In this document: positions 19,058 to 63,933 of the stretch, one piece after another
Layout: every line of letters starts with the position of its first letter
Position numbering within the stretch: position 1 is the stretch's first letter
Assembly: GCF_988243305.1 (NCBI RefSeq)
Contig: NZ_OZ547136.1
Reading direction: 5' to 3' (one strand)
Length of the DNA: 64,000 nucleotides
Notes under the pieces: model-generated
Databases searched by the model: none
Seen by the model: the letters and a program-made list of their open reading frames with translations, nothing else
What the model was told of the DNA's origin: nothing
Program-made: the position numbers and the translations under genes

Positions 19058-19480
19058 TCAGAAAAGCCGGGGCTGCGTGCGCTCCTGATGCAGGCGACGC
19101 TGGTTGCGGATAACGGAGTAAATCTGCGTCTCTGACATCTGGTAATGGCGGCGCAGGGTTTCAATTTTTTCGCCCTGGCTCCAGCGGGAAAAAATTTCAT
19201 TATTGCGCAGTTCGGTGAAAAGGGATTCACCGACCGGGAGATAATAACCACGCCCGCCCATGTACCCGGCCTGTGCGGCTGCAACCTTACGGGCAAGCAT
19301 TCCCGCCTGAGCAGGTTCAATCCCCTGACGGTGCAGTTCAGCACTGATCACATCAACCAGGTCCCGCAGCGTGCCGGGCCAGTTCTTTTTCAGCTCATCA
19401 TCAGGAATATCATCCAGACGGTCAATCAGCGCGTGCAGCTGTTCGCTGTCACCAAACATGCTCATCTGTGTTTCAGCCAT
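19058..19480 (-). CDS. Mor/C-family transcriptional activator
   Basis: 140 aa, C-terminal region resembles Mu Mor/C as I recall it; located between gemA-like gene and lysis genes. Confidence 0.7.
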   Translation of the reverse strand: MAETQMSMFGDSEQLHALIDRLDDIPDDELKKNWPGTLRDLVDVISAELHRQGIEPAQAGMLARKVAAAQAGYMGGRGYYLPVGESLFTELRNNEIFSRWSQGEKIETLRRHYQMSETQIYSVIRNQRRLHQERTQPRLF

Positions 19481-19550
19481 ACCCGCCTCCGGTCATCATT
19501 ACACAGGGCAAGTTTAAAATAAAAATCCCGCGCTGTGGCGGGATTTGGGG

Positions 19551-20063
19551 TTAAAAGGGGGAGGATTCTTCATACAGCCTGCAAACGCGCTCATAACTCA
19601 TCACTGTACGCGCTGACATCCCCAGCACATCCAGCATCTTGCGGCGGTGCCAGCGTTTGAGACGCTCCAGCACATCAGAGGCCAGCGCGGGGTGTTGTTC
19701 CAGCCACTGCCAGTTAGCCACACCTTCGCCGCCGTTCTGAGCGACCGTCTGCGATTTCACCCAGCGGTTAAGGGCTGTTTCCCCGCCATCAGAGATAAAG
19801 CCCTGCCGGTGCATCACCTTCCAGATGGCGCGAATTTTGGCGGTCACCGTACCCGGTTTTAAGGCCCGGTTAACCGGCTTCTGACGCACTTTAAAACCGC
19901 GTTTTTTGAAAACATCCAGCACGCGGGATAACTCATCCGGTGACATATCCCGGCAACTGGGTTTACCGGTGGCTGCCAGTAGTACGGATGTGTAGGTCTC
20001 ATGGTCAAGCTGTAGATCGCGTTTTGCGACATGTATTAAGGTAATCAGGGAAGCGCGATTCAT
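19551..20063 (-). CDS. GemA-like protein (Mu gp16 family)
   Basis: 170-aa ORF immediately upstream of the Mor-like gene, Mu order. Confidence 0.65.
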   Translation of the reverse strand: MNRASLITLIHVAKRDLQLDHETYTSVLLAATGKPSCRDMSPDELSRVLDVFKKRGFKVRQKPVNRALKPGTVTAKIRAIWKVMHRQGFISDGGETALNRWVKSQTVAQNGGEGVANWQWLEQHPALASDVLERLKRWHRRKMLDVLGMSARTVMSYERVCRLYEESSPF

Positions 20064-20127: not shown

Positions 20128-20475
20128 ATGAAAATAGATTACGATGAAGTATTAAGTATTCTCACAACTTTTCAGGATGCTGAAACACCTTTCCTTACAC
20201 TACAGGATCTGGGCATGGCTGAGGCAGAAGGAGAGGAAAAGGATAAAAAAGTTTTTCATCTTATGCTTCTCGCTGATAATGGCTCAATTGTTAATGGTGA
20301 TATGCAGTCAGAAACACCCAAATATATTGGTTTCTTTTTCCATTCTCTGGGCGTTGGTTTCAGAAACACGCCCATTATGCTTACCCAGCAGGGGCATGAT
20401 TTAGCTAACGCCCTGAGAAAAAACCAATCCTTGAAAGAATCAAAAAGGAGTTTACAGACGCACCATTTGATCTAA
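20128..20475 (+). CDS. hypothetical protein, opposite-strand AT-rich cargo gene
   Basis: 115-aa ORF with AAAGG ribosome-binding site 8 nt upstream of ATG; only plus-strand gene inside the minus-strand phage operons. Confidence 0.55.
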   Translation: MKIDYDEVLSILTTFQDAETPFLTLQDLGMAEAEGEEKDKKVFHLMLLADNGSIVNGDMQSETPKYIGFFFHSLGVGFRNTPIMLTQQGHDLANALRKNQSLKESKRSLQTHHLI

Positions 20476-20498
20476 TTAAAGAAGTTACCAAATCAATG

Positions 20499-20807
20499 TT
20501 AACCAGGTTCGTCAAAGAACGTATTGGGATTGACTGAACAACTTAATTCAGCCAGTAATCGCAGGGCGGCGACAGCCGCCTGCTTGTCACTTCTTTTAGC
20601 TATTTCCGCAAGAGTATGCACAATCCATAACGGACTTAACGCCACGGCTGAATCCAGAATCATGTCATCCATAATAATTTCTGGCATATCCCGCTTGTCA
20701 CATTCTTTATCCATAAAAGAAACGAATTTCTCTGCATCTTCCGGTTTCATGCCTCCGGCGATAAGGATTTTGCGATATTCATAAGACGATCTTAATTCAA
20801 TACTCAT
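20499..20807 (-). CDS. hypothetical protein (AT-rich cargo block)
   Basis: 102-aa ORF with AGGTGA RBS 5 nt upstream of ATG. Confidence 0.55.
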   Translation of the reverse strand: MSIELRSSYEYRKILIAGGMKPEDAEKFVSFMDKECDKRDMPEIIMDDMILDSAVALSPLWIVHTLAEIAKRSDKQAAVAALRLLAELSCSVNPNTFFDEPG

Positions 20808-20822
20808 TATTCACCTGCCTGC

Positions 20823-21215
20823 TTAATCTGTTTCCAGTGCTTTGCTACGGGCTATAGCCTCACATTCAAAAAATACCGACTCCGGCACGCGCTCTTTTAA
20901 TTCACGAACAAGGAAATCATTAACGCGTTCATGACGTCTTATATTTCTTTCCTTTTCCTCCTGGCGCAATACAGCAAGGCGGTATTCAACAGCCCGGCGT
21001 TGTTTCTGAAAGACAGCCAGTGCTTTTCTGGCAGCATTACGCCATGCATCATCGCCACATGGTGCGTATTCAAGCTGAAATTTAATCTCTTCAATAGTTT
21101 CTTTGATTTTTGCCAGCAAGCTAAGACAGTCGCTTATTGTCTCCAGCTTTTCATTATCAATATAACTTCTCACGCATTCACCTCCCGTAATTCCGGTAAA
21201 GCCGAAATATGACAC
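20823..21215 (-). CDS. hypothetical coiled-coil protein (AT-rich cargo block)
   Basis: 130-aa ORF; start may instead be GTG overlapping upstream stop. Confidence 0.5.
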   Translation of the reverse strand: MSYFGFTGITGGECVRSYIDNEKLETISDCLSLLAKIKETIEEIKFQLEYAPCGDDAWRNAARKALAVFQKQRRAVEYRLAVLRQEEKERNIRRHERVNDFLVRELKERVPESVFFECEAIARSKALETD

Positions 21216-21499
21216 CAGTGCGTCACCTGTCCGTCTTCATCTTCAAGGCAGGCTCCGGTTTCTTCATCAACAAAAAAGCCTTCATACCCCATATGGCCGA
21301 TGCGCAGCTCCTGACGGTGACCATACTGAACAATCAGCACGACAGCCTCCATATCAGGTGGGAAAGTATCATTCAGTGAATGCCAGGGATAACCGCGTAA
21401 ATCCCCGAAATAAACACCGGTCAGCGTTCCGCCACAGAGCGGCATTCCGGCGGCACACACAAGAGGTTCATCTGATTCAACAAATAAGGTCGTTATCAT
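21170..21499 (-). CDS. hypothetical early-region protein
   Basis: 109-aa ORF, start overlaps upstream stop. Confidence 0.5.
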   Translation of the reverse strand: MITTLFVESDEPLVCAAGMPLCGGTLTGVYFGDLRGYPWHSLNDTFPPDMEAVVLIVQYGHRQELRIGHMGYEGFFVDEETGACLEDEDGQVTHWCHISALPELREVNA

Positions 21500-22047
21500 G
21501 GCGTTAACTCCCGTAATACAGCGTCCTCGGCAGTCCGGCGACGGTAATAAACTGCGTGAGCAGAATGTTCAGATATTCCAAACTTTTCGCCAATTTCCCG
21601 GAATGACAGACGGCGTGGGTAATCGGAATCACGCAGCGCACGTATAAGACGTACATCATCATCAGATATGCGCGTGCCGGGGCGTAACTCTCCGCACTTT
21701 GTTAATCCAGCACCAATCATTCCTGCCCGACATCTGACAGAATCTTTATTACGTCCGAGATATTCTCCCATTTGCTGGCAGGTCATTGTTCTGGCATTTT
21801 TTCGAATAAACTTATCTTCATCAGGTGTAAATCTTGGGTGTTTATATTTCAGTAACTCCGGGTATGAACTGCGCAATACACCAGTCCGGTTATATACAGC
21901 CCAGACAGTTCTTTTTATTCTGGCAGCAATATCCTTAACCGGGGTGGATGAATAAAGCGCAATCAGCAGCGCATCTTCTTCAGGTGTCCACGGACGGACA
22001 TGAGCGGGGGCGCGACCTTTTAGTCCCATGGGTTGTAATTTCATCAT
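21496..22047 (-). CDS. hypothetical early-region protein with Myb/SANT-like WTPEEDxxL motif
   Basis: 183-aa ORF; motif resemblance only. Confidence 0.5.
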   Translation of the reverse strand: MMKLQPMGLKGRAPAHVRPWTPEEDALLIALYSSTPVKDIAARIKRTVWAVYNRTGVLRSSYPELLKYKHPRFTPDEDKFIRKNARTMTCQQMGEYLGRNKDSVRCRAGMIGAGLTKCGELRPGTRISDDDVRLIRALRDSDYPRRLSFREIGEKFGISEHSAHAVYYRRRTAEDAVLRELTP

Positions 22048-22050
22048 GCA

Positions 22051-22566
22051 TCACCCCCTGACTCGCTTTTCAGCAGCATAAAACTCATCAGACAGTATTT
22101 CGGTCATTTTCTGTTTTGCGGGTTTTACGCCGCACTGAAGGTAAATCACATCGTCAACGCAGAACCACTTCACAGGGCCAAACAGGATTGCCGAGAAATC
22201 AATACCCAGCCAGAACAACAGCGCATCGGTTCTGGCATACGTGACGGGCGAATATTCACGCCACAGACTGTTCAGTTCATCAGAGGCAACACGCAGGGTT
22301 TTAGGGATACGTGATGTGCGCGGTGTGCAGCTCCAGCCATTCGACGCAGTCGGTTTTCGCCATAAGTCGCGATGAAAAGGATATTTGTCCTCCGTAAAAC
22401 GCAGTCCCTTAAAGCAAAATCCACTGATACCGGATACAAATACCGACCGGCACGCAACATTCAGCACGGCCTCAAGGCGTTTTGCCTCATCCTTAACTTT
22501 CTGGCAGTCCTGCTGGTATTTTTGCCACGCAGCCAGCGCGGAAGGGTTTGATGTTTTAAAGAACAT
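22051..22566 (-). CDS. hypothetical early-region protein
   Basis: 171-aa ORF. Confidence 0.5.
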   Translation of the reverse strand: MFFKTSNPSALAAWQKYQQDCQKVKDEAKRLEAVLNVACRSVFVSGISGFCFKGLRFTEDKYPFHRDLWRKPTASNGWSCTPRTSRIPKTLRVASDELNSLWREYSPVTYARTDALLFWLGIDFSAILFGPVKWFCVDDVIYLQCGVKPAKQKMTEILSDEFYAAEKRVRG

Positions 22567-23099
22567 TACGCCACCTCCGCAGATATCCCGGCAGGCGCTG
22601 CTGTCCGGTCAACAATCAGGTAGCGCAGAACATGTTCAGTGATATTCCAGCCGCTTAAACCGCAGATAATGACGCCCAGGCGTATGTCGATATACGCCAT
22701 CACAAACTGGGGCACGCCTTCTTTCATGGCCTGCTCATCAACTTCAGCCACCACATAAACGGTTTCACAGGTCAGAACGCCCTGAGCAAATTCCCACGCC
22801 ATCGACGGAATATCATGCCCCTCAATCCATGGCAGGGATTTTCTGAAGCCGCACCACTGAACATCATCAGCCGCAGATTCCTGGCTGCATTTGCGACGAA
22901 CCGGCTGCACCGGGCGGGGGCGCGGAATATCATAAAAACCGTTACATTCCGTCAGCACGCCTGCATCAACCGCATCACGCAGAAAATAAACCATGGAGGA
23001 TGGCGGCATATTCATTTTTTCAGCCAGTACACCGCAGGTCAGGCGGCCATAAATACGCAGCCAGTTTTTAACCCCTTCAAGCACTTTTGCATCAATCAT
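22566..23099 (-). CDS. hypothetical early-region protein
   Basis: 177-aa ORF. Confidence 0.5.
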   Translation of the reverse strand: MIDAKVLEGVKNWLRIYGRLTCGVLAEKMNMPPSSMVYFLRDAVDAGVLTECNGFYDIPRPRPVQPVRRKCSQESAADDVQWCGFRKSLPWIEGHDIPSMAWEFAQGVLTCETVYVVAEVDEQAMKEGVPQFVMAYIDIRLGVIICGLSGWNITEHVLRYLIVDRTAAPAGISAEVA

Positions 23100-23244
23100 G
23101 ATTTATTTCCCCACCACATTATTAATGACGATATAAACGTATTTCATATTTCTTAACCCTTATTTTCTGTTTTCAGGCGCAAGCAGTCCCCTGACGCGAG
23201 CGCCATAATTAAAATGAAGTGATATTTAATTGATTAATGCGGTG

Positions 23245-23775
23245 TTATTTATTCAGTCCGGCGTCCTGTTCAAAAGGCTCGACATAAAAACTTTCAGCGC
23301 CTTTATTCACCTTGATACCGGCAATGCCTTTCACCGCATCCGGCTCCGCCAGGACGGCTTCCTTGTTCACTTCCTCTTTCGTGCGGATGAAACGCTCAAG
23401 CCCCATACGGCGCAGCATTTCAATCACACCTTCCACATCACGGCTGACGCTGCATGATGGCGTTCCCAGCCGCCATGACACCGTTCCGGTGGTCAGATTG
23501 GCTGTTTTGGTTTTGCCGCCGTTCGTCAGCTCATCACGGTTGGTTTTGCACCAGTCCTGAATCCCTTTAAAAAGCACTTTGATTTGCTTTTTAAGATTTT
23601 CAATCTGCGGCGTATAACGGGCGGTGATTTCTGCCACTTCGTCATTCATCGCCGTTTCCAGGCGCAGCGCCTCTCGCTGAATATCTCCCAGGGTGCGGAT
23701 ATCACGGCTGACTTCTTCCCGGGTCTGCGGTGCCGCCTCGGCTGCGGCCTTTAATTTTGTAACGCGTTTAGCCAT
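23245..23775 (-). CDS. gam: Gam host-nuclease inhibitor (Mu Gam-like DNA end-binding protein)
   Basis: 176 aa; translation closely resembles Mu Gam as I recall it (…DELTNGGKTKTANLTTGTVSWR…). Confidence 0.85.
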   Translation of the reverse strand: MAKRVTKLKAAAEAAPQTREEVSRDIRTLGDIQREALRLETAMNDEVAEITARYTPQIENLKKQIKVLFKGIQDWCKTNRDELTNGGKTKTANLTTGTVSWRLGTPSCSVSRDVEGVIEMLRRMGLERFIRTKEEVNKEAVLAEPDAVKGIAGIKVNKGAESFYVEPFEQDAGLNK

Positions 23776-23786
23776 TTTGTTTTTCC

Positions 23787-24080
23787 TTATTGCAGTGTGC
23801 CTGATGCTTTATGCACGCGGTGGCGTTTAATGATGGCATCCGCTCCAAAAGACTGTGCAGATGCCTGAAATTCCGCTGAGAGAAACTGAATAATTGCAGG
23901 ACTGTGATACTGGAGAATACTTGCATAAACGTCACAGAGTGACGTCGGCCTGTTATCCGTATCACGTTCTGTTTTCACATCCACTCCAATCTTTTCATGC
24001 ACTTCAACACAGTCATTGCCTGCCAACTTTTCGTCATGCGAAACATGATTAAATTCAAAAATAACGCGTACTTTGCTCAT
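23787..24080 (-). CDS. hypothetical small protein, paralog of adjacent ORF
   Basis: Starts MSKVRVIFEFNHVSH, adjacent ORF starts MSKVVHIIFEYKEHVIH; start set at internal Met. Confidence 0.5.
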   Translation of the reverse strand: MSKVRVIFEFNHVSHDEKLAGNDCVEVHEKIGVDVKTERDTDNRPTSLCDVYASILQYHSPAIIQFLSAEFQASAQSFGADAIIKRHRVHKASGTLQ

Positions 24081-24084
24081 GGAA

Positions 24085-24357
24085 TTACCCCTGTTGATTA
24101 AATTCATTACCGTTAATAACCCCGGAAGCCATGCCTCTGTCTTTCATGAATGCACTGGCTTTCATTGCCACAAGCTCTGCGAAGTTTCTGCTTTCCGCGA
24201 GCATAACCACCCCAAAAATCATGGCGGGTCCATCACCTTTCTGCTTTATCCCGGTTGAACGTATGTCCAGACTTACCCCCATGCGCACTGTTCCATCAGC
24301 GTTTTTATGGATAACGTGCTCCTTATATTCGAAAATAATGTGTACGACTTTACTCAT
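24085..24357 (-). CDS. hypothetical small protein, paralog of adjacent ORF
   Basis: 90-aa ORF, shared N-terminal motif with 23787..24080. Confidence 0.5.
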   Translation of the reverse strand: MSKVVHIIFEYKEHVIHKNADGTVRMGVSLDIRSTGIKQKGDGPAMIFGVVMLAESRNFAELVAMKASAFMKDRGMASGVINGNEFNQQG

Positions 24358-24635
24358 CCTCTGGTCCTCGTTCTGTTTGGATAACTGACCCGGCGTCTGA
24401 CCTCACGGCAGAACCGAATCATGGCATTAAAGGCTTCTTCCTCCGTCACCGCTTCCGGTATCCCCGGAACCAGTAACTGCTCCTGTTCATCACGTCCATG
24501 ACGCGCCATAACCTCAATCACATGCCGTACCGTGGCAGGCTTTCCGGCAACTATCGGCAATGCACCTTCCGGCAGGACGTAACCAAACTCAATAAGACCA
24601 CTCGACCACGCCCATGCAATGAGATTTTTTTTCAC
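24354..24635 (-). CDS. hypothetical early-region protein
   Basis: 93-aa ORF. Confidence 0.5.
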   Translation of the reverse strand: MKKNLIAWAWSSGLIEFGYVLPEGALPIVAGKPATVRHVIEVMARHGRDEQEQLLVPGIPEAVTEEEAFNAMIRFCREVRRRVSYPNRTRTRG

Positions 24636-24636
24636 C

Positions 24637-24903
24637 TCACACCTCCCAGTAAACCGTGCAGCCGCTGATGCGGGTGGCCTTCACACGGCGGCGCAGGCCG
24701 TTGGTCTGTATGGTGATTTCAATTTCACCGGTTCCCTGCACGTTGCCTACCGGCGGCGTGGTTTTCAGTGCAAAACGTTGCGGATAGCGCTTACTGCGTT
24801 CCAGTACCGCACCGGCAAGTTCGGTCAGACGGCGCGCGCTGTTCAGGGAGTCGAATAAATTCATTTTGTTACCGCAGGATTGCATATTCATATAACACCT
24901 CAT
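24637..24903 (-). CDS. hypothetical early-region protein
   Basis: 88-aa ORF. Confidence 0.5.
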   Translation of the reverse strand: MRCYMNMQSCGNKMNLFDSLNSARRLTELAGAVLERSKRYPQRFALKTTPPVGNVQGTGEIEITIQTNGLRRRVKATRISGCTVYWEV

Positions 24904-25131
24904 TTAGCTGACTTGTTTCGCACCAACAGAACGGCATATTCCGCTGTAAACTTCTGTCGCACCTTCGCGATCAAGTCCGGCAGATATCACCATTCGTGTG
25001 CGGTCATTAAATTCAAAAAGTAAATCGCCACATTCTTTATTTTCGGCCAGTGAAATCACCTTCACGTTATCGAAATTAACCAGGTAAAAGCGTCCGTAAA
25101 TATCAGGAATATTAAATACCGCCATAATCAC
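24904..25131 (-). CDS. hypothetical small protein in the Mu kil position
   Basis: 75-aa ORF immediately downstream of B; positional inference only. Confidence 0.45.
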   Translation of the reverse strand: MIMAVFNIPDIYGRFYLVNFDNVKVISLAENKECGDLLFEFNDRTRMVISAGLDREGATEVYSGICRSVGAKQVS

Positions 25132-26069
25132 ACCTGTGAGAGTAATTCAGGGTTGGTATAAACCTCTTTAAAGGCCGCATTAATATGTTTTTCTGTCAGC
25201 GCCGCGCCTTCACCGCTGGCGGTGAGCCACGCCTGGTTAAGCGTATGTGTCAGAACGCGTAACGCTCCCGGCTTTTCAGCGATAGCCTGCATGACGGCCA
25301 GCTCAGCCTCACCACTGATCCCCCACGCCATGGCAATGGCCAGCACATCCGCCTTTTTGGCCTTGCGAAGTTGTTTTGTACGGGCAAGACGGCTGAACAG
25401 GCGCGATAAATCATCAAAGGCGCGGCGTCCACCTTTAAACAATCCGCGCGGGTTACCAATAAGCACCATCCCGATCCCCGTGGCGTCCTGAATTGCCCGG
25501 AGTTGCTCCAGACCGTCAATACCAAGATGATCCGCCTCATCCACAATCACCAGTCCACGCGTTCCCATCAGGCGACGGCGGATGGCGCGGGATAATGCCC
25601 CTTTGTTCGCGCGGGTGTAATCAATCCCCAGCGCATCGGCCAGCTCCAGCAGACACTCCGTGACGCTGGAGTGCGCGGGTGACAGGGTGATCATCCAGGT
25701 GTTTGGTTGCTCCTGGCAGTAATTACGGGCAGTGGCCGTTTTACCCACACCCGGTACGCCCACAATAACGTTAATACAGCCCATCAGGCGAACCGCCTGA
25801 AACAGTGCGCGCAGCTCCTGGACTGTCTGAGTTTCCACAAACTGCGGCGGTTCCGGCAGTGCGCTTTGTTTATTCCAGTTCTCATACCAGGAGCGCAGGG
25901 AAGCAGCCACAGCAGCGTTATCGCCTTTATATTTTCCCTTACGGAAAGCCGATAATGTGCCGTCGGAAATTCCCGCCTCTCTGGCGATGGCATACTGCGT
26001 CAGTACGCCGCCATCAATAAGTTCATCAATGGTCTTGATTACATCGTTAATATCGGTCATATTATTCAC
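25128..26069 (-). CDS. transposition ATPase B (MuB-like AAA+ target DNA activator)
   Basis: 313 aa, Walker A GVPGVGKT, translation resembles Mu B. Confidence 0.9.
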   Translation of the reverse strand: MNNMTDINDVIKTIDELIDGGVLTQYAIAREAGISDGTLSAFRKGKYKGDNAAVAASLRSWYENWNKQSALPEPPQFVETQTVQELRALFQAVRLMGCINVIVGVPGVGKTATARNYCQEQPNTWMITLSPAHSSVTECLLELADALGIDYTRANKGALSRAIRRRLMGTRGLVIVDEADHLGIDGLEQLRAIQDATGIGMVLIGNPRGLFKGGRRAFDDLSRLFSRLARTKQLRKAKKADVLAIAMAWGISGEAELAVMQAIAEKPGALRVLTHTLNQAWLTASGEGAALTEKHINAAFKEVYTNPELLSQV

Positions 26070-26142: not shown

Positions 26143-28233
26143 TCAGGCCAGCGGATCACTTTCTTTTAATTTCGCTTCGAGCAACTGCAATCCCCGCTGG
26201 AAATTACGCTCGTATTCTTCATCAGGTTCATCGTCAGCGACCGGTTGCTGAACGATCACCGTATTACCCACAGGGCGGTATATATTTTCCAGCCACGGCT
26301 CCTGTGGCTTGTGCTCCAGCACGTTGACAATCTCATCCTCGGCATCACGGATTTTTTCCTCTGCGCGTTTACGCATGCCTTTAAGGCGCTGCTGCTGTTT
26401 GTGGTATTCCGCGCTGACCGGGAAGGCTTCGCGTTTATTGCCGTCCCATACCGCCTCGCAAATCACGCTGCCATCCAGGCGACGTACGGTAATTCGTTCG
26501 GCATCATGAATGTCATAGCTGATAAGCACCTTACGACCATGCTCGTCACGCAGCTCGGGCGCGTAGTAAATATTATTCAGCCAGCGTATTTCACAGCGTC
26601 TTACAGGGCGCTCCACCATCGGCCGGAACATATCCCGCAGTTCAACATCGGACAGCCATTCAATTTCCGTGTCCTCTTCCGCCAGGCGTTTTTTTCTGAA
26701 CTCCGCCGGGCTGTAATGTTTACCGTTCGGCTTCATGGGTAATTCATCGTGCGGCCGGTTGTTGTACCACTCAACACCATCACGAATGGCATCAATCAGT
26801 TCAGCCCAGGACGGTGAATCACGCATCGCTGACTGCTGCCGGGCGTTCAGCCGTTTGCCCTGTTGCAGGGCAGTAAATGCCGAGCGTAAATCGCGGTTGG
26901 TTTTGCGTAACGTCTCGCGATCTGCACCTTTCCCGAAATAGGTGCGGTATTTACGGGCTATGCGCATCGGTAATGTGCGGTTAAGCCGTTCGATAATGCC
27001 TCGTCCCTGCGGATTACCGGCAATCCCGGTCGGGTGATTAATCCCCAGTCGCGGCAGTATCCCCACAACCTCCTTATCCAGGATGTCGGCGGTTTCCCCG
27101 GAGCCGTTATCCGAGTAATACAGAAACGGTTTGCCGTGATGGCGAATGCCGTGCTGTATGGCACCGGCTACGGCGAAAACATTTTCAGCCAGGTCAAGGC
27201 TCCAGCCCACCACAAAGCGCGTGCCACCGTCGATAACAAAGGTCACTTCCGGTGCAAATGGCCGACCGTGAACCGGGTGTGCGCATTTCAGCTTCATGCC
27301 GTGACCGTCACCAATCCAGACATAATTCACCGGCATTTTTGACCAGTCGCGGCGCGTGAATCCCTCAAGCTGGCGGTATTCACTGCCGGTCACCCGGCCT
27401 TTTTGTTTCACCACTTCCGGCAGTTTCTTCATTGCGCGGCGAATGGTGTCATAAGACGGCATGATATCGAGCATATAAGGCTCATCAGCGTGCCGGTGCT
27501 GCCATTCAGCGACAAAATCCTCGTAAGCCTCGGTCATTGGTCGGCCGTTTGACTGGCGATACTGCGCCAGAAATTCGGGCAGCCAGTTAATATCTTCGGC
27601 TTTTATTTCCTGGCGCTTACCCGGTGCCAGTAAAAGCAGGCGTTCAGCGGCGTTCTGCGCCTTGTTAAAGGCCGCAATCCAGCGTTTCAGCGTGATTTCA
27701 CTTAACGCGCGGCTGTTTCCCTTTTTGGCGTTCGCCGTCTCAACCATTGCCACAATGCGCTCGTCCAGCTGCGAACGTGCCAGGTTGTCAACGATAAACC
27801 GGATAGCCTTCGCACAGCTGAAACCAGGTTGTTGCGCGACTTTCAGAACTTCGCTGACGATCGCGATTCGTGCATCAGCCACCTGGCGCTGGTTTTCAGT
27901 CAGGGCATTAAGGCGTTCGACCATCAGTTGTGGTGATCCGCGATATGCCTCCACCGCATCAACCACGGCAGGCGAGCGTCTGGCCTTTGTCACCACTGGA
28001 GCCGGTGATTCATCGACTTTTTGAGTCATCAGTTGCAGGGCGTAGCGTTCACGTAATGCCTGCTGCGTCACTTCAGGTAAACAGTCGATGCTGTATTCAG
28101 TTGCTTTAGAGCCTGAGCGACGACGGGAACAACAGCTTTTCCCTTGTACGTAACGTTGTAATGCCTGGCGAATACCTTTTGTTGTAGCAGGCATTCCGGG
28201 CGCACCAATCAGTTCTTTTGCAATGACATACAT
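26143..28233 (-). CDS. DDE transposase A (MuA-like)
   Basis: 696-aa ORF between ner and B. Confidence 0.85.
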   Translation of the reverse strand: MYVIAKELIGAPGMPATTKGIRQALQRYVQGKSCCSRRRSGSKATEYSIDCLPEVTQQALRERYALQLMTQKVDESPAPVVTKARRSPAVVDAVEAYRGSPQLMVERLNALTENQRQVADARIAIVSEVLKVAQQPGFSCAKAIRFIVDNLARSQLDERIVAMVETANAKKGNSRALSEITLKRWIAAFNKAQNAAERLLLLAPGKRQEIKAEDINWLPEFLAQYRQSNGRPMTEAYEDFVAEWQHRHADEPYMLDIMPSYDTIRRAMKKLPEVVKQKGRVTGSEYRQLEGFTRRDWSKMPVNYVWIGDGHGMKLKCAHPVHGRPFAPEVTFVIDGGTRFVVGWSLDLAENVFAVAGAIQHGIRHHGKPFLYYSDNGSGETADILDKEVVGILPRLGINHPTGIAGNPQGRGIIERLNRTLPMRIARKYRTYFGKGADRETLRKTNRDLRSAFTALQQGKRLNARQQSAMRDSPSWAELIDAIRDGVEWYNNRPHDELPMKPNGKHYSPAEFRKKRLAEEDTEIEWLSDVELRDMFRPMVERPVRRCEIRWLNNIYYAPELRDEHGRKVLISYDIHDAERITVRRLDGSVICEAVWDGNKREAFPVSAEYHKQQQRLKGMRKRAEEKIRDAEDEIVNVLEHKPQEPWLENIYRPVGNTVIVQQPVADDEPDEEYERNFQRGLQLLEAKLKESDPLA

Positions 28234-28234
28234 A

Positions 28235-28483
28235 TCATGACGCCTTTCTCATATAGCTCTTAACCTGGTATCGACTGGGCCAGATTTCTTCAGGCGATAC
28301 CCCAAGAGCATCAGCAATTATTTGCTGATACGGTCGGCAAGGAGTACGTAATACGCTTTTCAGCGAATCCCTGCTGTAACCAGCCTTTAAAGATAAAGAG
28401 CGCAGTGATAAGCCAGCCATGTGTAAGCGCGCCTTGATGATTTCAGGCGGCCAATCGTGATCTGAAACTTCTCTTCTACTCAT
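28235..28483 (-). CDS. ner: Ner-like DNA-binding regulator
   Basis: 82 aa; ...SPEEIWPSRYQ matches Ner family C-terminal motif. Confidence 0.8.
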   Translation of the reverse strand: MSRREVSDHDWPPEIIKARLHMAGLSLRSLSLKAGYSRDSLKSVLRTPCRPYQQIIADALGVSPEEIWPSRYQVKSYMRKAS

Positions 28484-28650
28484 ACTTCCTCTATTCTAAA
28501 AAGTTACCCGCGCGGATATTCGTGCGGATATCTGTACGGGTAAATAATAGAACAAACAAAAGAACCAAATCAAGGTATTTTGTTCTTTTTATTCTTTGCG
28601 GTGTTTTTGTTATTAATATCAATAAGATAAATAAAAAGGAACCTGAGAGC
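28484..28650. promoter_or_regulatory. divergent promoter/operator region between ner and repressor
   Basis: Direct repeats GCGGATAT at 28512 and 28524; inverted repeat AAAAGAAC (28556-28565) / GTTCTTTT (28582-28590). Confidence 0.5.
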
Positions 28651-29235
28651 ATGAACATGAAAAACAGTTCTTTTCTCGACGAAGGAAAAGAACCAGTGAT
28701 CGAACGGATTTTTCGTCTTGCAGAGCGTTACAAATCGAGAAGTGAGGCGGCTAGAGCATGGGGAATAAACGTTCAGACATTGCAGAACTACTACAAAAGG
28801 AGAAACAATCAGCCGCCACCACAACCAAGAAAGCACCATCTCCAGAACATTGCAGAAAGAGAACATGTATCTATGGAGTGGCTGGTCAATGGTTATGGTG
28901 ATGAGCCAAGCATGAAAAAAGAACCAATTGAACAAACAAAAAGAACAAAAAAACAAAGAATTGATGATAGTGATTCCATCATCATGAGGGCGTGGGACTC
29001 GCTAACTTCATCTGAACAAGAGATTTTGTCCAACTTATTGATCAGAAAAGGGGCCGAACTACTAACCGTTTTGCTTGATACAGATATTCAAAAACTGCAC
29101 TCATTGAGCGGAGTCAAAAGAGCACTAGCATTGAGTCTACAAGAGTTACCCGATGATACTGTAAGAGAGATTTATGAAGAATGTGAAGCTAAGGTTAATC
29201 ATTTAAATGTAACCCAGAAAAAGGCTGGTGCGTAA
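28651..29235 (+). CDS. prophage repressor (Mu c position)
   Basis: 194 aa from ATG with AAGGA RBS; divergent from ner. Confidence 0.6.
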   Translation: MNMKNSSFLDEGKEPVIERIFRLAERYKSRSEAARAWGINVQTLQNYYKRRNNQPPPQPRKHHLQNIAEREHVSMEWLVNGYGDEPSMKKEPIEQTKRTKKQRIDDSDSIIMRAWDSLTSSEQEILSNLLIRKGAELLTVLLDTDIQKLHSLSGVKRALALSLQELPDDTVREIYEECEAKVNHLNVTQKKAGA

Positions 29236-61813: not shown

Positions 61814-62180
61814 TTATTCATAGCGTCTGCTACGTGCGGGACGAGGTCGGGTGTACCAGGCAATGCTGCCTAACAATGCCCCGACCAGAGCCATAAATAA
61901 AAATCCGACCAGTGCCCCTAACCACTTTCCCGCGGTAGAGCCTAAATCGCTTTTCAAATCCCGACACCGGGGCATCAGGGATCCGGCTCATCACCCAGAT
62001 GTAACGCGCCATTGCCCAGACGAAATAGCCACACCATGTATAGAAAGCCCACAAAGCCAATTTGCCGCCAGGGCTGCGAGAGAGTCTCTCTTCCATCTTT
62101 GTCGAACCGTATTCCATTTTGAGATAACCCGGAAAATTCAGACATAGTACTATTATGTGATAAAAGTCACATTTTTCCAC
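61814..62180 (-). pseudogene. yedR: yedR with apparent +1 frameshift in an A/T homopolymer (possible pseudogene or sequencing error)
   Basis: N-terminal part through ...PVSGFE is in one frame; the hydrophobic C-terminal helix SDLGSTAGKWLGALVGFLFMALVGALLGSIAW...RRYE* is in the +1 frame after tttt at 61951-61954. Confidence 0.6.
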
Positions 62181-62745
62181 ATTGGATGAGCCAGTCAAGA
62201 CTCAATCATTTTTTGAACAAATAGATAAATTTTGCGCAACGGCAATAATTACTGGAAAAACAGCAATAAAGATTTATTTATATCCTTGGTAATAGTTTTA
62301 TTAATTCACCCAAACAATATATTAGCACTGAATACAATTATACCTTTTTTGATTTCTGTGTCATGATAACCCCGTTATTAGCCTTTTATCGTCTTGTTTA
62401 TATTTTTTGGGCCGGCATGATGCCGGCTTTTTTTATACCTTCATTAATGTGCGCGTGATCACGCCTGCCGTTTGGCGCAACAATCATTGATACTCCCTAT
62501 CTTTCCATTCAACTCATAACATATTGATATACATTTATAATTTTCATGAATGTTTATATTTAGAATTCATAATTCTGAATTATATTAAATAGATTAGAAA
62601 CATTTTGAAATCTTTTAAATACATTTGTTACATGTAATCCTTAAAATAAAATGAACTTCATAGAATAGTATCCAAATGTGCTTTTTTTTGGATAACGGCA
62701 CTTATTGATATATTCATGAAGATTATAATCACAAGGGAATACATA

Positions 62746-63933
62746 ATGAAAAGAAAAGTTCTGGCAATGCTGGTCCCGGCGTTATTAGTTGCTGGCGCAG
62801 CAAATGCGGCTGAAGTCTATAATAAAGATGGTAATAAACTGGATTTGTACGGAAAAGTAGCGGGCCTGCACTACTTCTCTGATGATGCTGGCAGCGATGG
62901 CGACATGTCATATGCCCGTATCGGTTTCAAAGGTGAAACTCAGATCGCTGACCAATTCACTGGTTATGGTCAGTGGGAATTTAACATTGGCGCAAACGGT
63001 CCTGAAAGCGACAAAGGTAATACCGCAACGCGTCTGGCATTTGCAGGTTTAGGCTTTGGTCAGAATGGTACTTTCGACTATGGTCGTAACTACGGTGTCG
63101 TATATGACATCGAAGCATGGACCGATATGCTGCCAGAATTTGGTGGCGATACCTATGCTGGTGCCGACAACTTCATGAACGGTCGTGCTAATGGTGTTGC
63201 AACCTACCGTAACAATGGCTTCTTTGGTCAGGTCGATGGCCTGAACTTTGCTCTGCAATATCAGGGTAATAATGAAGATGATGGATTATTCGGTCAGGAA
63301 GGTTCTGGTAACGGTAATGGCCGTAAGTTAGCTAAAGAGAACGGCGACGGCTTCGGTATGTCCACTTCCTATGACTTTGACTTTGGTTTAAGTCTGGGCG
63401 CTGCTTACTCTAACTCTGACCGTACCGACAATCAGGTTCACAAAGGTACTCATAACACTCGTTATGGAGATCGCTTCGATGCAACTGCTGGCGGTGAAAC
63501 AGCAGAAGCATGGACCGTTGGTGCTAAATACGACGCTAATAACGTTTACTTAGCAGCTATGTATGCTGAAACCCGTAACATGACTGGTTACGGTGATGCT
63601 GATGCGATCGCTAACAAAACCCAAAACTTTGAAGTTGTTGCTCAGTATCAGTTCGACTTCGGTCTGCGCCCGTCCATCGCTTACCTGCAATCTAAAGGTA
63701 AGGATTTAGGCGGTGTAAATAGTGATAACTTCGACAGCCAGGGCAATCATCATTACACCAACAAAGATCTGGTTAAATATGTTGATATTGGTATGACCTA
63801 CTACTTCAACAAAAACATTTCCACCTACGTTGATTACAAAATCAACCTGCTGGACAACGACGACGACTTCTACAAAGAAAACGGCATCGCTACCGATGAT
63901 ATCGTAGCTGTGGGCTTAGTCTACCAGTTCTAA
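62746..63933 (+). CDS. yedS: outer membrane porin, OmpC/OmpF/PhoE family (yedS position), intact
   Basis: Signal peptide [21 protein letters not shown] then [17 protein letters not shown]..., C-terminal ...VGLVYQF; AT-rich upstream region. Confidence 0.8.

Follow-up and report, generated by a model that had tools for sequence, protein, structure and literature searches.

The small minus-strand open reading frames (ORFs) that lie between the transposition gene B and a gemA-like gene on contig NZ_OZ547136.1 (assembly GCF_988243305.1) very probably form the accessory, or semi-essential, part of the early operon of an Escherichia coli Mu-like transposable prophage, with twelve co-oriented and mostly coupled genes. 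We analyzed a stretch of 64,000 nucleotides (nt) of this contig (hereafter, the window), and our reading of the block rests on homology, gene order, coding constraint and the mosaic pattern among its relatives. The ORF list, the RefSeq copy and profile matches placed the left part of a minus-strand Mu-like prophage at approximately 16.4–29.2 kb of the window, with the minus-strand order ner, A, B, twelve small ORFs, gemA, mor and then lysozyme. This order, together with the presence of kil and gam homologues, bears out the proposal of an initial annotation, made from the letters of the window, that the block is the Mu semi-essential early region. What that annotation had observed was confirmed and its interpretation was largely right, while its gene count, its list of nameable genes and its Myb motif, which scores below threshold, needed correction.

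The element is a known Mu-like prophage lineage that is already annotated in RefSeq, and no new kind of system. By itself the block adds little, as an expected accessory early region of a lineage annotated in hundreds of E. coli genomes. It can be used as a map in which the genes that are always kept are separated from exchangeable cassettes, indicating which ORFs to test first. A lead of wider reach is the family of one of its genes, o3, which recurs next to Gam or DUF3164, two proteins that exclude each other, and of which natural fusions to Gam exist.

Gene content and organization of the block

The initial annotation had described about ten ORFs at 21170–25131, and ten consecutive minus-strand ORFs were indeed present there in the program-made list (24904–25131, 24637–24903, 24354–24635, 24085–24357, 23787–24107, 23245–23775, 22566–23099, 22051–22566, 21496–22047 and 21170–21499). 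The block continues to 20499, however, giving twelve genes plus a DUF2513 moron before gemA. Start codons were refined by reading the junctions and by comparison with the copy in E. coli TOE17 (99.4% identical) as annotated in RefSeq. Four of them moved: o1 to an ATG at 25125 (73 amino acids, aa), o2 to an ATG at 24891 (84 aa), o5 to an ATG at 24080 (97 aa) and o11 to a GTG at 21173 (116 aa). The resulting genes, with the ratio of nonsynonymous to synonymous differences per site (pN/pS) where given, are as follows.

24904..25125, minus strand: o1, 73 aa, backbone gene with two alleles (phrog_3375, E 1e-46; pN/pS 0.24)
24637..24891, minus strand: o2, 84 aa, Kil-family protein (phrog_2679, E 8e-46)
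24354..24635, minus strand: o3, 93 aa, member of a large unnamed family (phrog_1518, E 3.8e-43)
24085..24357, minus strand: o4, 90 aa, start overlapping the o3 stop as ATGA (phrog_4107, E 8e-59; pN/pS 0.33)
23787..24080, minus strand: o5, 97 aa, two alleles (phrog_2230, E 2.5e-38)
23245..23775, minus strand: Gam, 176 aa (PF07352, 143.7 bits against a cut-off of 28.3, profile positions 1–149 of 149)
22566..23099, minus strand: o7, 177 aa, orthologue of Mu gp11 (69% identity over 177 aa; phrog_1949, E 8e-106)
22051..22566, minus strand: o8, 171 aa, orthologue of Mu gp12/E13 (54% identity; phrog_2314, E 1e-84)
21496..22047, minus strand: o9, 183 aa, predicted DNA-binding protein with three helix-turn-helix (HTH) modules (phrog_323, E 2e-52)
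21170..21499, minus strand: o10, 109 aa, variable cassette (phrog_6925, E 9e-51)
20823..21173, minus strand: o11, 116 aa from the RefSeq start, variable cassette (phrog_6158, E 1e-54, matched from residue 15 of the long ORF onward)
20499..20807, minus strand: o12, 102 aa, variable cassette (phrog_1988, E 1e-38)

With these starts, the successive gaps from B onward were 3, 12, 1, −4, 4, 11, 145, −1, 3, −4, −4 and 15 nt. Several junctions are ATGA or GTGA overlaps, and Shine-Dalgarno motifs often lie within the preceding gene. The tight packing noted initially and the stop/start overlaps are real, the sole sizeable gap being the 145 nt after gam. All twelve ORFs matched a PHROG family (E 1e-38 to 1e-106). 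When window alleles were compared with distinct full-length alleles from about 40 related viral contigs, pN/pS was 0.0–0.47 over the twelve ORFs and 0.10–0.47 over the ten initially listed (B, 0.06; Gam, 0.10), values that are rough because the compared alleles share ancestry. The PHROG matches and pN/pS values therefore identify the ORFs as real genes and rule out non-coding sequence.

The block corresponds in its B-to-gemA/mor position, orientation and tight packing to genes 5–15 of Mu (kil to gemA). We compared the window proteins with the Mu early proteins (AF083977) by local blastp, and only Kil (weakly), Gam, gp11 and gp12 gave direct matches. Gam, the assignment made at the outset, matched PF07352 over its full profile and was 57% identical to Mu Gam over the full length (E 2e-71). 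Gam, which resembles Ku, binds double-strand DNA ends and blocks RecBCD. The o7 product matched PF25754 (Gp11_C) at 139.2 bits against a 27-bit cut-off. The family of o2 carries the label "Kil protein for bacterial septation inhibition"; o2 also matched phrog_2743, the family of Mu Kil itself (E 1e-3), and Mu Kil matched phrog_2679 (E 9e-5). Since these profile cross-matches are reciprocal, they strengthen the Kil assignment, while the weak direct similarity between o2 and Mu Kil (33% over 39 aa, E 1e-4) counts against it. As a Kil-family member by profiles, o2 would inhibit host cell division or morphology. Mu gp7/E6 reached the o5 family phrog_2230 only at E 0.009, and direct blastp between o5 and gp7 was not significant, so that o5 is possibly a remote relative of gp7/E6. 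A paralogous relationship among o4, o5 and Mu gp7, which share an MSKV..I.E start, was considered and left unproven, with blastp E values of only 0.02–0.05.

By analogy with Mu, the twelve genes would be transcribed together with ner, A and B from the early promoter Pe upon induction. The Kil-type o2 would then arrest normal host division or morphology, and Gam would bind the ends of linear phage DNA and keep RecBCD off, both again as in Mu; the three-module o9 would, judging from its family, act as a DNA-binding protein. In the hypothesis developed below, o3 would work with the DNA-end-binding module, that is, with Gam, or with DUF3164 where Gam is absent.

The shared part of the two regions thus comprises a Kil-family gene, Gam, gp11, gp12 and a gp9/E8-family HTH protein. 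The differences are considerable. Mu gp6, gp8, gp13, gp14 and Mu_54 have no counterpart in the window, and seven window genes (o1, o3, o4, o5, o10, o11 and o12) have no Mu homologue by blastp. Compared with Mu, the window has an extra gene, o1, between B and kil; its gp9-like gene encodes three HTH modules instead of two and lies after gp12 instead of before gam; and, unlike in Mu, an opposite-strand DUF2513 gene precedes gemA.

In a Pfam scan of the ORF products, only Gam and the Gp11 C-terminal domain exceeded threshold. NCBIfam gave nothing above noise, PADLOC-DB, scanned with ten of the proteins, matched none of them at E ≤0.01, and PDB sequence searches with o1, o2, o3 (as a profile), o4, o5, o7, o8, o9 and o10 gave nothing significant. 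Neither o1 nor o4 matched anything in Pfam, NCBIfam, PADLOC or PDB beyond its PHROG family, and a literature search found no functional study of DUF3164 or of any of these ORFs. The initial statement that nothing but Gam could be assigned a function thus holds for most ORFs, but the Kil-family o2, gp11 (69%), gp12 (54%) and the gp9/E8-family o9 can be named. The families matched by o1, o3, o4, o5, o10, o11 and o12 are uncharacterized or have no tested function; characterized Mu early proteins were matched by Gam and Kil only, and not by all ORFs of the block. For o1, o4, o5, gp11, gp12 and o10–o12, which are small and, as in Mu, would be expressed early, a counter-defense or host-takeover role is plausible.

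Next, we determined how widely the block is distributed. A megablast search with the 6.2-kb block matched 232 of 5426 complete E. coli genomes; at least 80% of the query was covered in 133 of them, and the top identities were 99.1–99.4%. The TOE17 prophage (NZ_CP069093) showed 99.4% DNA identity across the whole block with the same gene order, and its RefSeq annotation contains the same ORFs, mostly as hypothetical proteins. Many O157:H7 genomes carry a copy of about 94% identity with the same gene order, in which only query positions 1–5638 aligned and there is an insertion after gam; for the HTH protein they have the other of the two alleles, which is annotated as "AsnC family" or "DNA-binding protein". 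For O157 Sakai, an intact Mu-like prophage, Sp18, has been reported (PMC2669165), to which the O157:H7 copies found here may correspond. In the phage collection, the block was present only inside two Stx-phage records, labeled "inserted Mu-like phage". Mu, D108, SfMu and Yersinia Mu-like phages aligned over B, gam and gene 11 only, at about 67% identity.

Gene content was then compared in 80 viral contigs encoding a Gam relative, in which each window protein was tabulated and four architectures were read. About 40 of these loci, with Gam 93–100% identical to that of the window, were taken as close relatives. In all of them gam, gene 11 and gene 12 were present, as was o1 (75–100% identity), and kil was missing from only one (L036). 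Three genes occurred in two sequence types, with identities to the window of about 78% or at least 93% for o1, about 60% or at least 92% for o5 and about 72% or at least 96% for o9. Others varied by presence or absence, namely o3, o10 (missing from many close relatives), o11, o12 and the DUF2513 moron, whose place is taken by small forward-strand genes in many relatives. The deletion of o3 leaves its last 22 codons before o4. The backbone present in nearly all relatives therefore consists of o1, Kil, o4, o5, Gam, gp11, gp12 and the three-HTH protein, and the exchangeable or dispensable cassettes are o3, o10, o11, o12 and the opposite-strand DUF2513 moron. These swapped or missing cassettes agree with the initial expectation that the content of this region varies between Mu-like phages and indicate that the window holds one common arrangement of a mosaic region. 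The natural deletion variants (o3, o10–o12 and kil) are consistent with dispensability of these genes.

Three further arrangements were seen among the relatives. In L036 (7171–7422), the N-terminus of o1 is fused in frame to the C-terminus of o3, with kil wholly deleted. In many close relatives (L012 4828–5370, L020 3561–4103 and L038 5543–6085), a 180-aa ORF (MAYFYFKLDRVQTNKYF...) occupies the interval between gam and gene 11, where the window has no gene; this insertion is probably why most E. coli megablast matches were split into two or three pieces. L038 (3622–4041) also has a 139-aa ORF between o1 and kil that resembles Mu gp8/E7 by eye in length and N-terminus and is absent from the window.

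The genes flanking the block are listed below.

28522–29235, plus strand: repressor-like gene
28235–28483, minus strand: ner
26143–28233, minus strand: transposase A
25128..26069, minus strand: MuB-like AAA+ transposition protein, the upstream boundary of the block (phrog_296, E 6e-110; 48% tblastn identity to Mu; "AAA family ATPase" in RefSeq)
19551..20063, minus strand: GemA-like protein of the gp16 family, the downstream boundary of the block (phrog_286, E 5e-53; 47% identity to Mu GemA; "gp16 family protein" in RefSeq)
19058–19480, minus strand: mor

The o3 family and its neighbors

Besides Gam, o3 was the sole small ORF of the block that recurred in distant Mu-like phages, at 37–59% identity (Gam there, 50–58%), and its identity to phrog_1518 proteins of Pseudomonas, Burkholderia and other Mu-like phages was 43–59%. 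A word-indexed homologue search returned only seven near-identical proteins, and an exhaustive profile search of 1.84 billion representatives was needed to reveal the family, with 1100 clusters at E ≤1e-3 and 675 at E ≤1e-10. These are clusters at the 50% identity level, and the family comprises at least 1100 of them. An alignment of ten sequences gave the conserved pattern A-W-x2-G-L-I-x-F-G ... P-x-G-A ... R-H ... L-L-V-P-G-V-P-E-A. In the AlphaFold2 model (pLDDT 89.9), o3 consisted of three strands, a helix, a loop with the conserved LVPGxPEA and a long C-terminal helix, and the conserved residues contained no obvious catalytic set. No structural neighbor of the family was found, 56 diverse members scanned against Pfam matched no relevant family, and there was no NCBIfam model either. 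A plasmid leading-region origin was rejected, with matches in only 6 of 72,556 plasmids.

In GenBank and PHROGs, o3-type proteins are named "host nuclease inhibitor". Judging from the sequences, this label most likely goes back to the "gam" of phage D3112, a 266-aa product that contains Gam and the o3 domain. A literature search found no paper, and hence no experiment, on the small o3-type protein, suggesting that the label has no experimental basis.

To describe the genomic context of the family, we used two samples of distant loci. Among 40 loci selected by Gam, 20 carried an o3 homologue, which in all but one (L068, 2268 nt) was co-oriented with Gam and no more than 707 nt away from it. In the second sample, 52 loci chosen by the o3 family, Gam lay within 590 nt of o3 in 19 and DUF3164 (PF11363) within 1074 nt in 27; none had both and six had neither. 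The partner could be on either side of o3 and at a variable distance, Gam always being on the strand of o3. Because side and distance vary in this way, the proximity of o3 to its partner survives rearrangement. Five of the six loci with neither partner also lacked detectable A, B, gemA and mor and are for this reason probably not Mu-like; one locus with neither partner, L142, is the BcepMigl genome. Of the randomly chosen o3-family contexts, one overlaps a gam start and one follows DUF3164 in a Mu-like prophage, in agreement with this linkage.

Across the 92 distant, mostly Mu-like loci of both samples (L043–L082 and L114–L165), Gam (PF07352) and DUF3164 never co-occurred. The idea that the two are distant homologues was rejected, as hhalign gave a probability of 1%; DUF3164 may be a functional stand-in for Gam.

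Two other randomly chosen contexts were exceptions to this linkage. On a marine contig (L088, 416–1223), an o3 member directly follows an ArdA anti-restriction gene, and in L090 (1429–4567) an integrase-bearing element with a Dam-type methylase encodes an o3 member that has an additional domain fused to its N-terminus.

A close physical association with Gam was seen in D3112-like phages, in which the protein encoded directly after gam is 43–50% identical to o3 and likewise belongs to phrog_1518. The two arrangements differ. In the window, two genes separate o3 from the gam that lies downstream of it, a distance of 588 nt, whereas the copies in D3112-like phages come after gam, either 1 to about 400 nt away or in a fusion. 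Phages D3112 (L083, 4476–5276) and MP38 (L093, 976–1776) encode a single 266-aa Gam–o3 polypeptide. In JBD93 (L094, 975–1773), gp12 (Gam) and gp13 (o3-like) are separate and spaced TGAcATG, and alignment with this phage showed that a 1-nt deletion 16 codons before the gam stop joins the two frames in D3112 and MP38.

On the basis of the conserved neighborhood with two alternative partners, the translational coupling and the natural fusion, we tentatively propose, as a rather unlikely but specific possibility, that o3 is a small protein-binding adaptor, rather than an enzyme, which would work with Gam or, where Gam is absent, with DUF3164. The fuller version, in which o3 would bind Gam or DUF3164 (the latter as a Gam analogue) and tune end protection, or widen it against RecBCD-linked defenses such as Gabija, we consider doubtful. 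In phage JBD30, the Mu-type Gam and GemA each sensitize the phage to Gabija (PMC12407980), and the end-binding module is therefore a contact point with host defense. If true, the o3 hypothesis would bear on how transposable phages protect their DNA ends.

Several observations weigh against this proposal. There is no o3 in Mu, and deletion has removed it from about one in four of the close E. coli relatives; o3 is therefore dispensable, and Gam functions in its absence. Nor is o3 present in half (20 of 40) of the distant loci that carry Gam. Relatives of o3 occur without Gam in non-Mu contexts, namely in BcepMigl, beside ArdA and in the integrase-bearing element with a Dam methylase. Because early regions are short, adjacency of o3 and Gam is partly expected by chance, and because the loci are phylogenetically related, the linkage counts overstate independence. 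The fusion in D3112 and MP38 removes the conserved C-terminal 16 residues of Gam and could be a tolerated defect instead of a functional fusion.

Most of these observations are what would be expected if the o3 family had no relation to Gam or DUF3164 and were an independent early accessory gene, for counter-defense or host takeover for example, lying near them only through compactness; the locus with o3 2.3 kb from Gam points the same way. We regard this explanation as evenly poised between right and wrong. It does not readily account for a proximity that is kept across arrangements, upstream or downstream and from 8 to 590 nt, or that extends to two unrelated partner families that never co-occur, nor for the natural in-frame Gam fusion in two independently sequenced phages, all of which argue for the partnership of o3 with the end-binding module.

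The predicted three-module protein o9

The initial annotation had pointed out a WTPEED motif reminiscent of Myb/SANT repeats in the 21496–22047 product, and WTPEEDALL is indeed present at residues 20–28. The window protein itself scored below the Pfam cut-offs for both Myb_DNA-binding (PF00249; 20.7 versus 24.4 bits) and Myb_DNA-bind_6 (PF13921; 17.3 versus 22.9 bits), and its C-terminal part gave sub-threshold matches to HTH_AsnC-type and HTH_10. The o9 family spans E. coli and Salmonella, down to 41% identity. Among 16 relatives, 10 matched Myb_DNA-binding (best E 1e-5) and 6 matched Myb_DNA-bind_6 (best E 1.9e-7) at E ≤0.01, with HTH_AsnC-type matches in 15 and Sigma70_r4 matches in 12. RefSeq names the o9 product a "SANT/Myb-like DNA-binding domain-containing protein". 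The Myb/SANT idea is thus supported at the family level, by 10 of 16 relatives, the RefSeq name and the three-helix model described below, but not by the Pfam score of the window protein.

The AlphaFold2 model of o9 (pLDDT 83) contained three-helix modules at residues 22–59, 75–110 and 129–169 plus a C-terminal helix. The helices of the first two modules (22–31/37–44/48–59 and 75–84/90–97/101–110) form three-helix bundle repeats of about 50 residues. In a Foldseek search of the PDB with the whole three-module model, the top matches were the Myb-repeat subunit of SNAPc (best E 0.05), the DNA-binding domains of the Tc3 and Mos1 transposases, Pax5 and sigma factors, none of them significant (none at E ≤1e-3). 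The lack of a significant full-length match is expected because the orientation of the modules is uncertain (pTM 0.48). Self-blastp of o9 detected no internal repeats, and the repeat structure was assigned from the model and by reading the sequence by eye.

The relationship to Mu gp9 required profiles, direct blastp between the two proteins not being significant. In phrog_323, o9 covered profile positions 80–256 and Mu gp9 positions 143–244 (E 1.3e-28). Inspection by eye showed a single Myb-like repeat (KRWSREDREFI...) and a C-terminal HTH (YRISEHDKYL...) in Mu gp9, and two Myb-like repeats (RPWTPEEDALL... and PRFTPDEDKFI...) with a similar C-terminal HTH (TRISDDDVRLI...) in o9. From these profile, sequence and model comparisons, we conclude that o9 is an enlarged gp9/E8-type predicted DNA-binding protein placed after gene 12. 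Its modules are predicted to be two Myb/SANT-like repeats and a sigma-70 region 4/AsnC-type HTH.

Like Myb/SANT proteins, o9 has W-T-P-E-E-D opening helix 1, a predicted three-helix module and tandem repeats, and most of its relatives have Pfam matches. It differs from canonical members in scoring below the cut-offs, in its tryptophan spacing, in its phage/bacterial origin and in the fused sigma-70 region-4-like HTH. Alternatively, o9 would be no relative of Myb/SANT proteins but a multi-HTH protein of a general kind, for instance a regulator like AsnC or sigma-70 region 4, in which WTPEED arose by convergence, an explanation that we consider rather unlikely. The sub-threshold Myb scores, the absence of Foldseek matches below E 1e-3, the off-canonical positions of W20 and W50 in repeat 1 and the predominance of HTH_AsnC-type and Sigma70_r4 over Myb matches among the relatives all favor it. 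However, the AsnC and sigma matches fall on the C-terminal module (130–164) and the Myb matches on the N-terminal repeats (19–53). Since they are located on different modules, the two assignments are not alternatives. The best Myb_DNA-bind_6 match among the relatives (E 1.9e-7) and the Myb-repeat subunit of SNAPc as the top Foldseek match also argue for Myb/SANT-like repeats.

Other readings of the block and minor features

We also considered whether the block is chiefly a counter-defense island, in which most of the unnamed ORFs (o1, o4, o5 and o10–o12) would inhibit specific bacterial immune systems. This would explain the allele swapping and the presence/absence variation, cassette variation of this kind being known from phage accessory loci; Gam itself is an anti-RecBCD factor, genetic interactions with Gabija have been described for the Mu-type Gam and GemA of JBD30 (PMC12407980), and the GC content of the block is below that of the rest of the prophage. 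Yet no ORF matched a characterized anti-defense protein in Pfam, PHROGs or PDB, and mosaicism is equally expected for any dispensable early gene. We therefore consider a dedicated island improbable. That the small ORFs are chance frames or decayed, non-functional remnants of a defective prophage is scarcely credible: several are shorter than 100 aa and have no Pfam or NCBIfam family, and the adjoining DUF2513 gene is frameshifted, but every ORF matches a PHROG family at E ≤1e-38 with pN/pS of 0.0–0.47, the junctions have Shine-Dalgarno motifs and stop/start overlaps, and the same frames are annotated in the 99.4% identical RefSeq copy, in which the overlapping alternative-frame ORFs are unannotated, these also having no homology support. 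The accessory early region of a Mu-like prophage remains our preferred reading of the block.

An Rfam scan of the block gave no RNA family match, and the numbers of promoter-like and terminator-like sites in the block were at the level of shuffled sequence. Three minor features lie in or next to the block.

23100..23244, minus strand: intergenic gap between gam and gene 11, 145 nt, with an AT-rich hairpin and then a GC-rich hairpin (GGCGC...GCGCC)
20128..20475, plus strand: frameshifted DUF2513 moron, in the lowest-GC stretch (GC 0.42; PF10711, 23.8 bits)
19523–19546, minus strand: terminator-like hairpin with a 9-pair stem and a T-run after it, between gemA and mor, which are 70 nt apart

The hairpin-bearing gap after gam is conserved in both Mu and the window. 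Both of its hairpins are also found in Mu (L002, 6326–6410), although the surrounding DNA is only about 67% identical, and their z-scores are modest (−1.4 and −2.3).

The window DUF2513 allele scored 23.8 bits, under the PF10711 cut-off of 29.6, and the intact 136-aa allele in TOE17 is named DUF2513 by RefSeq. Compared with the latter, the window gene (20128–20538, plus strand) lacks one nucleotide of a seven-A run near 20418; the loss shifts the frame after residue 97 and gives 115 aa instead of 136 aa. This deletion could reflect decay, homopolymer slippage or an assembly error. The same A6 allele was present in at least two viral contigs (L003 and L007). Elsewhere in the window, GC content fell to 0.39 at 52001–53000 and to 0.36 at 62001–63000, far under that of the remainder.

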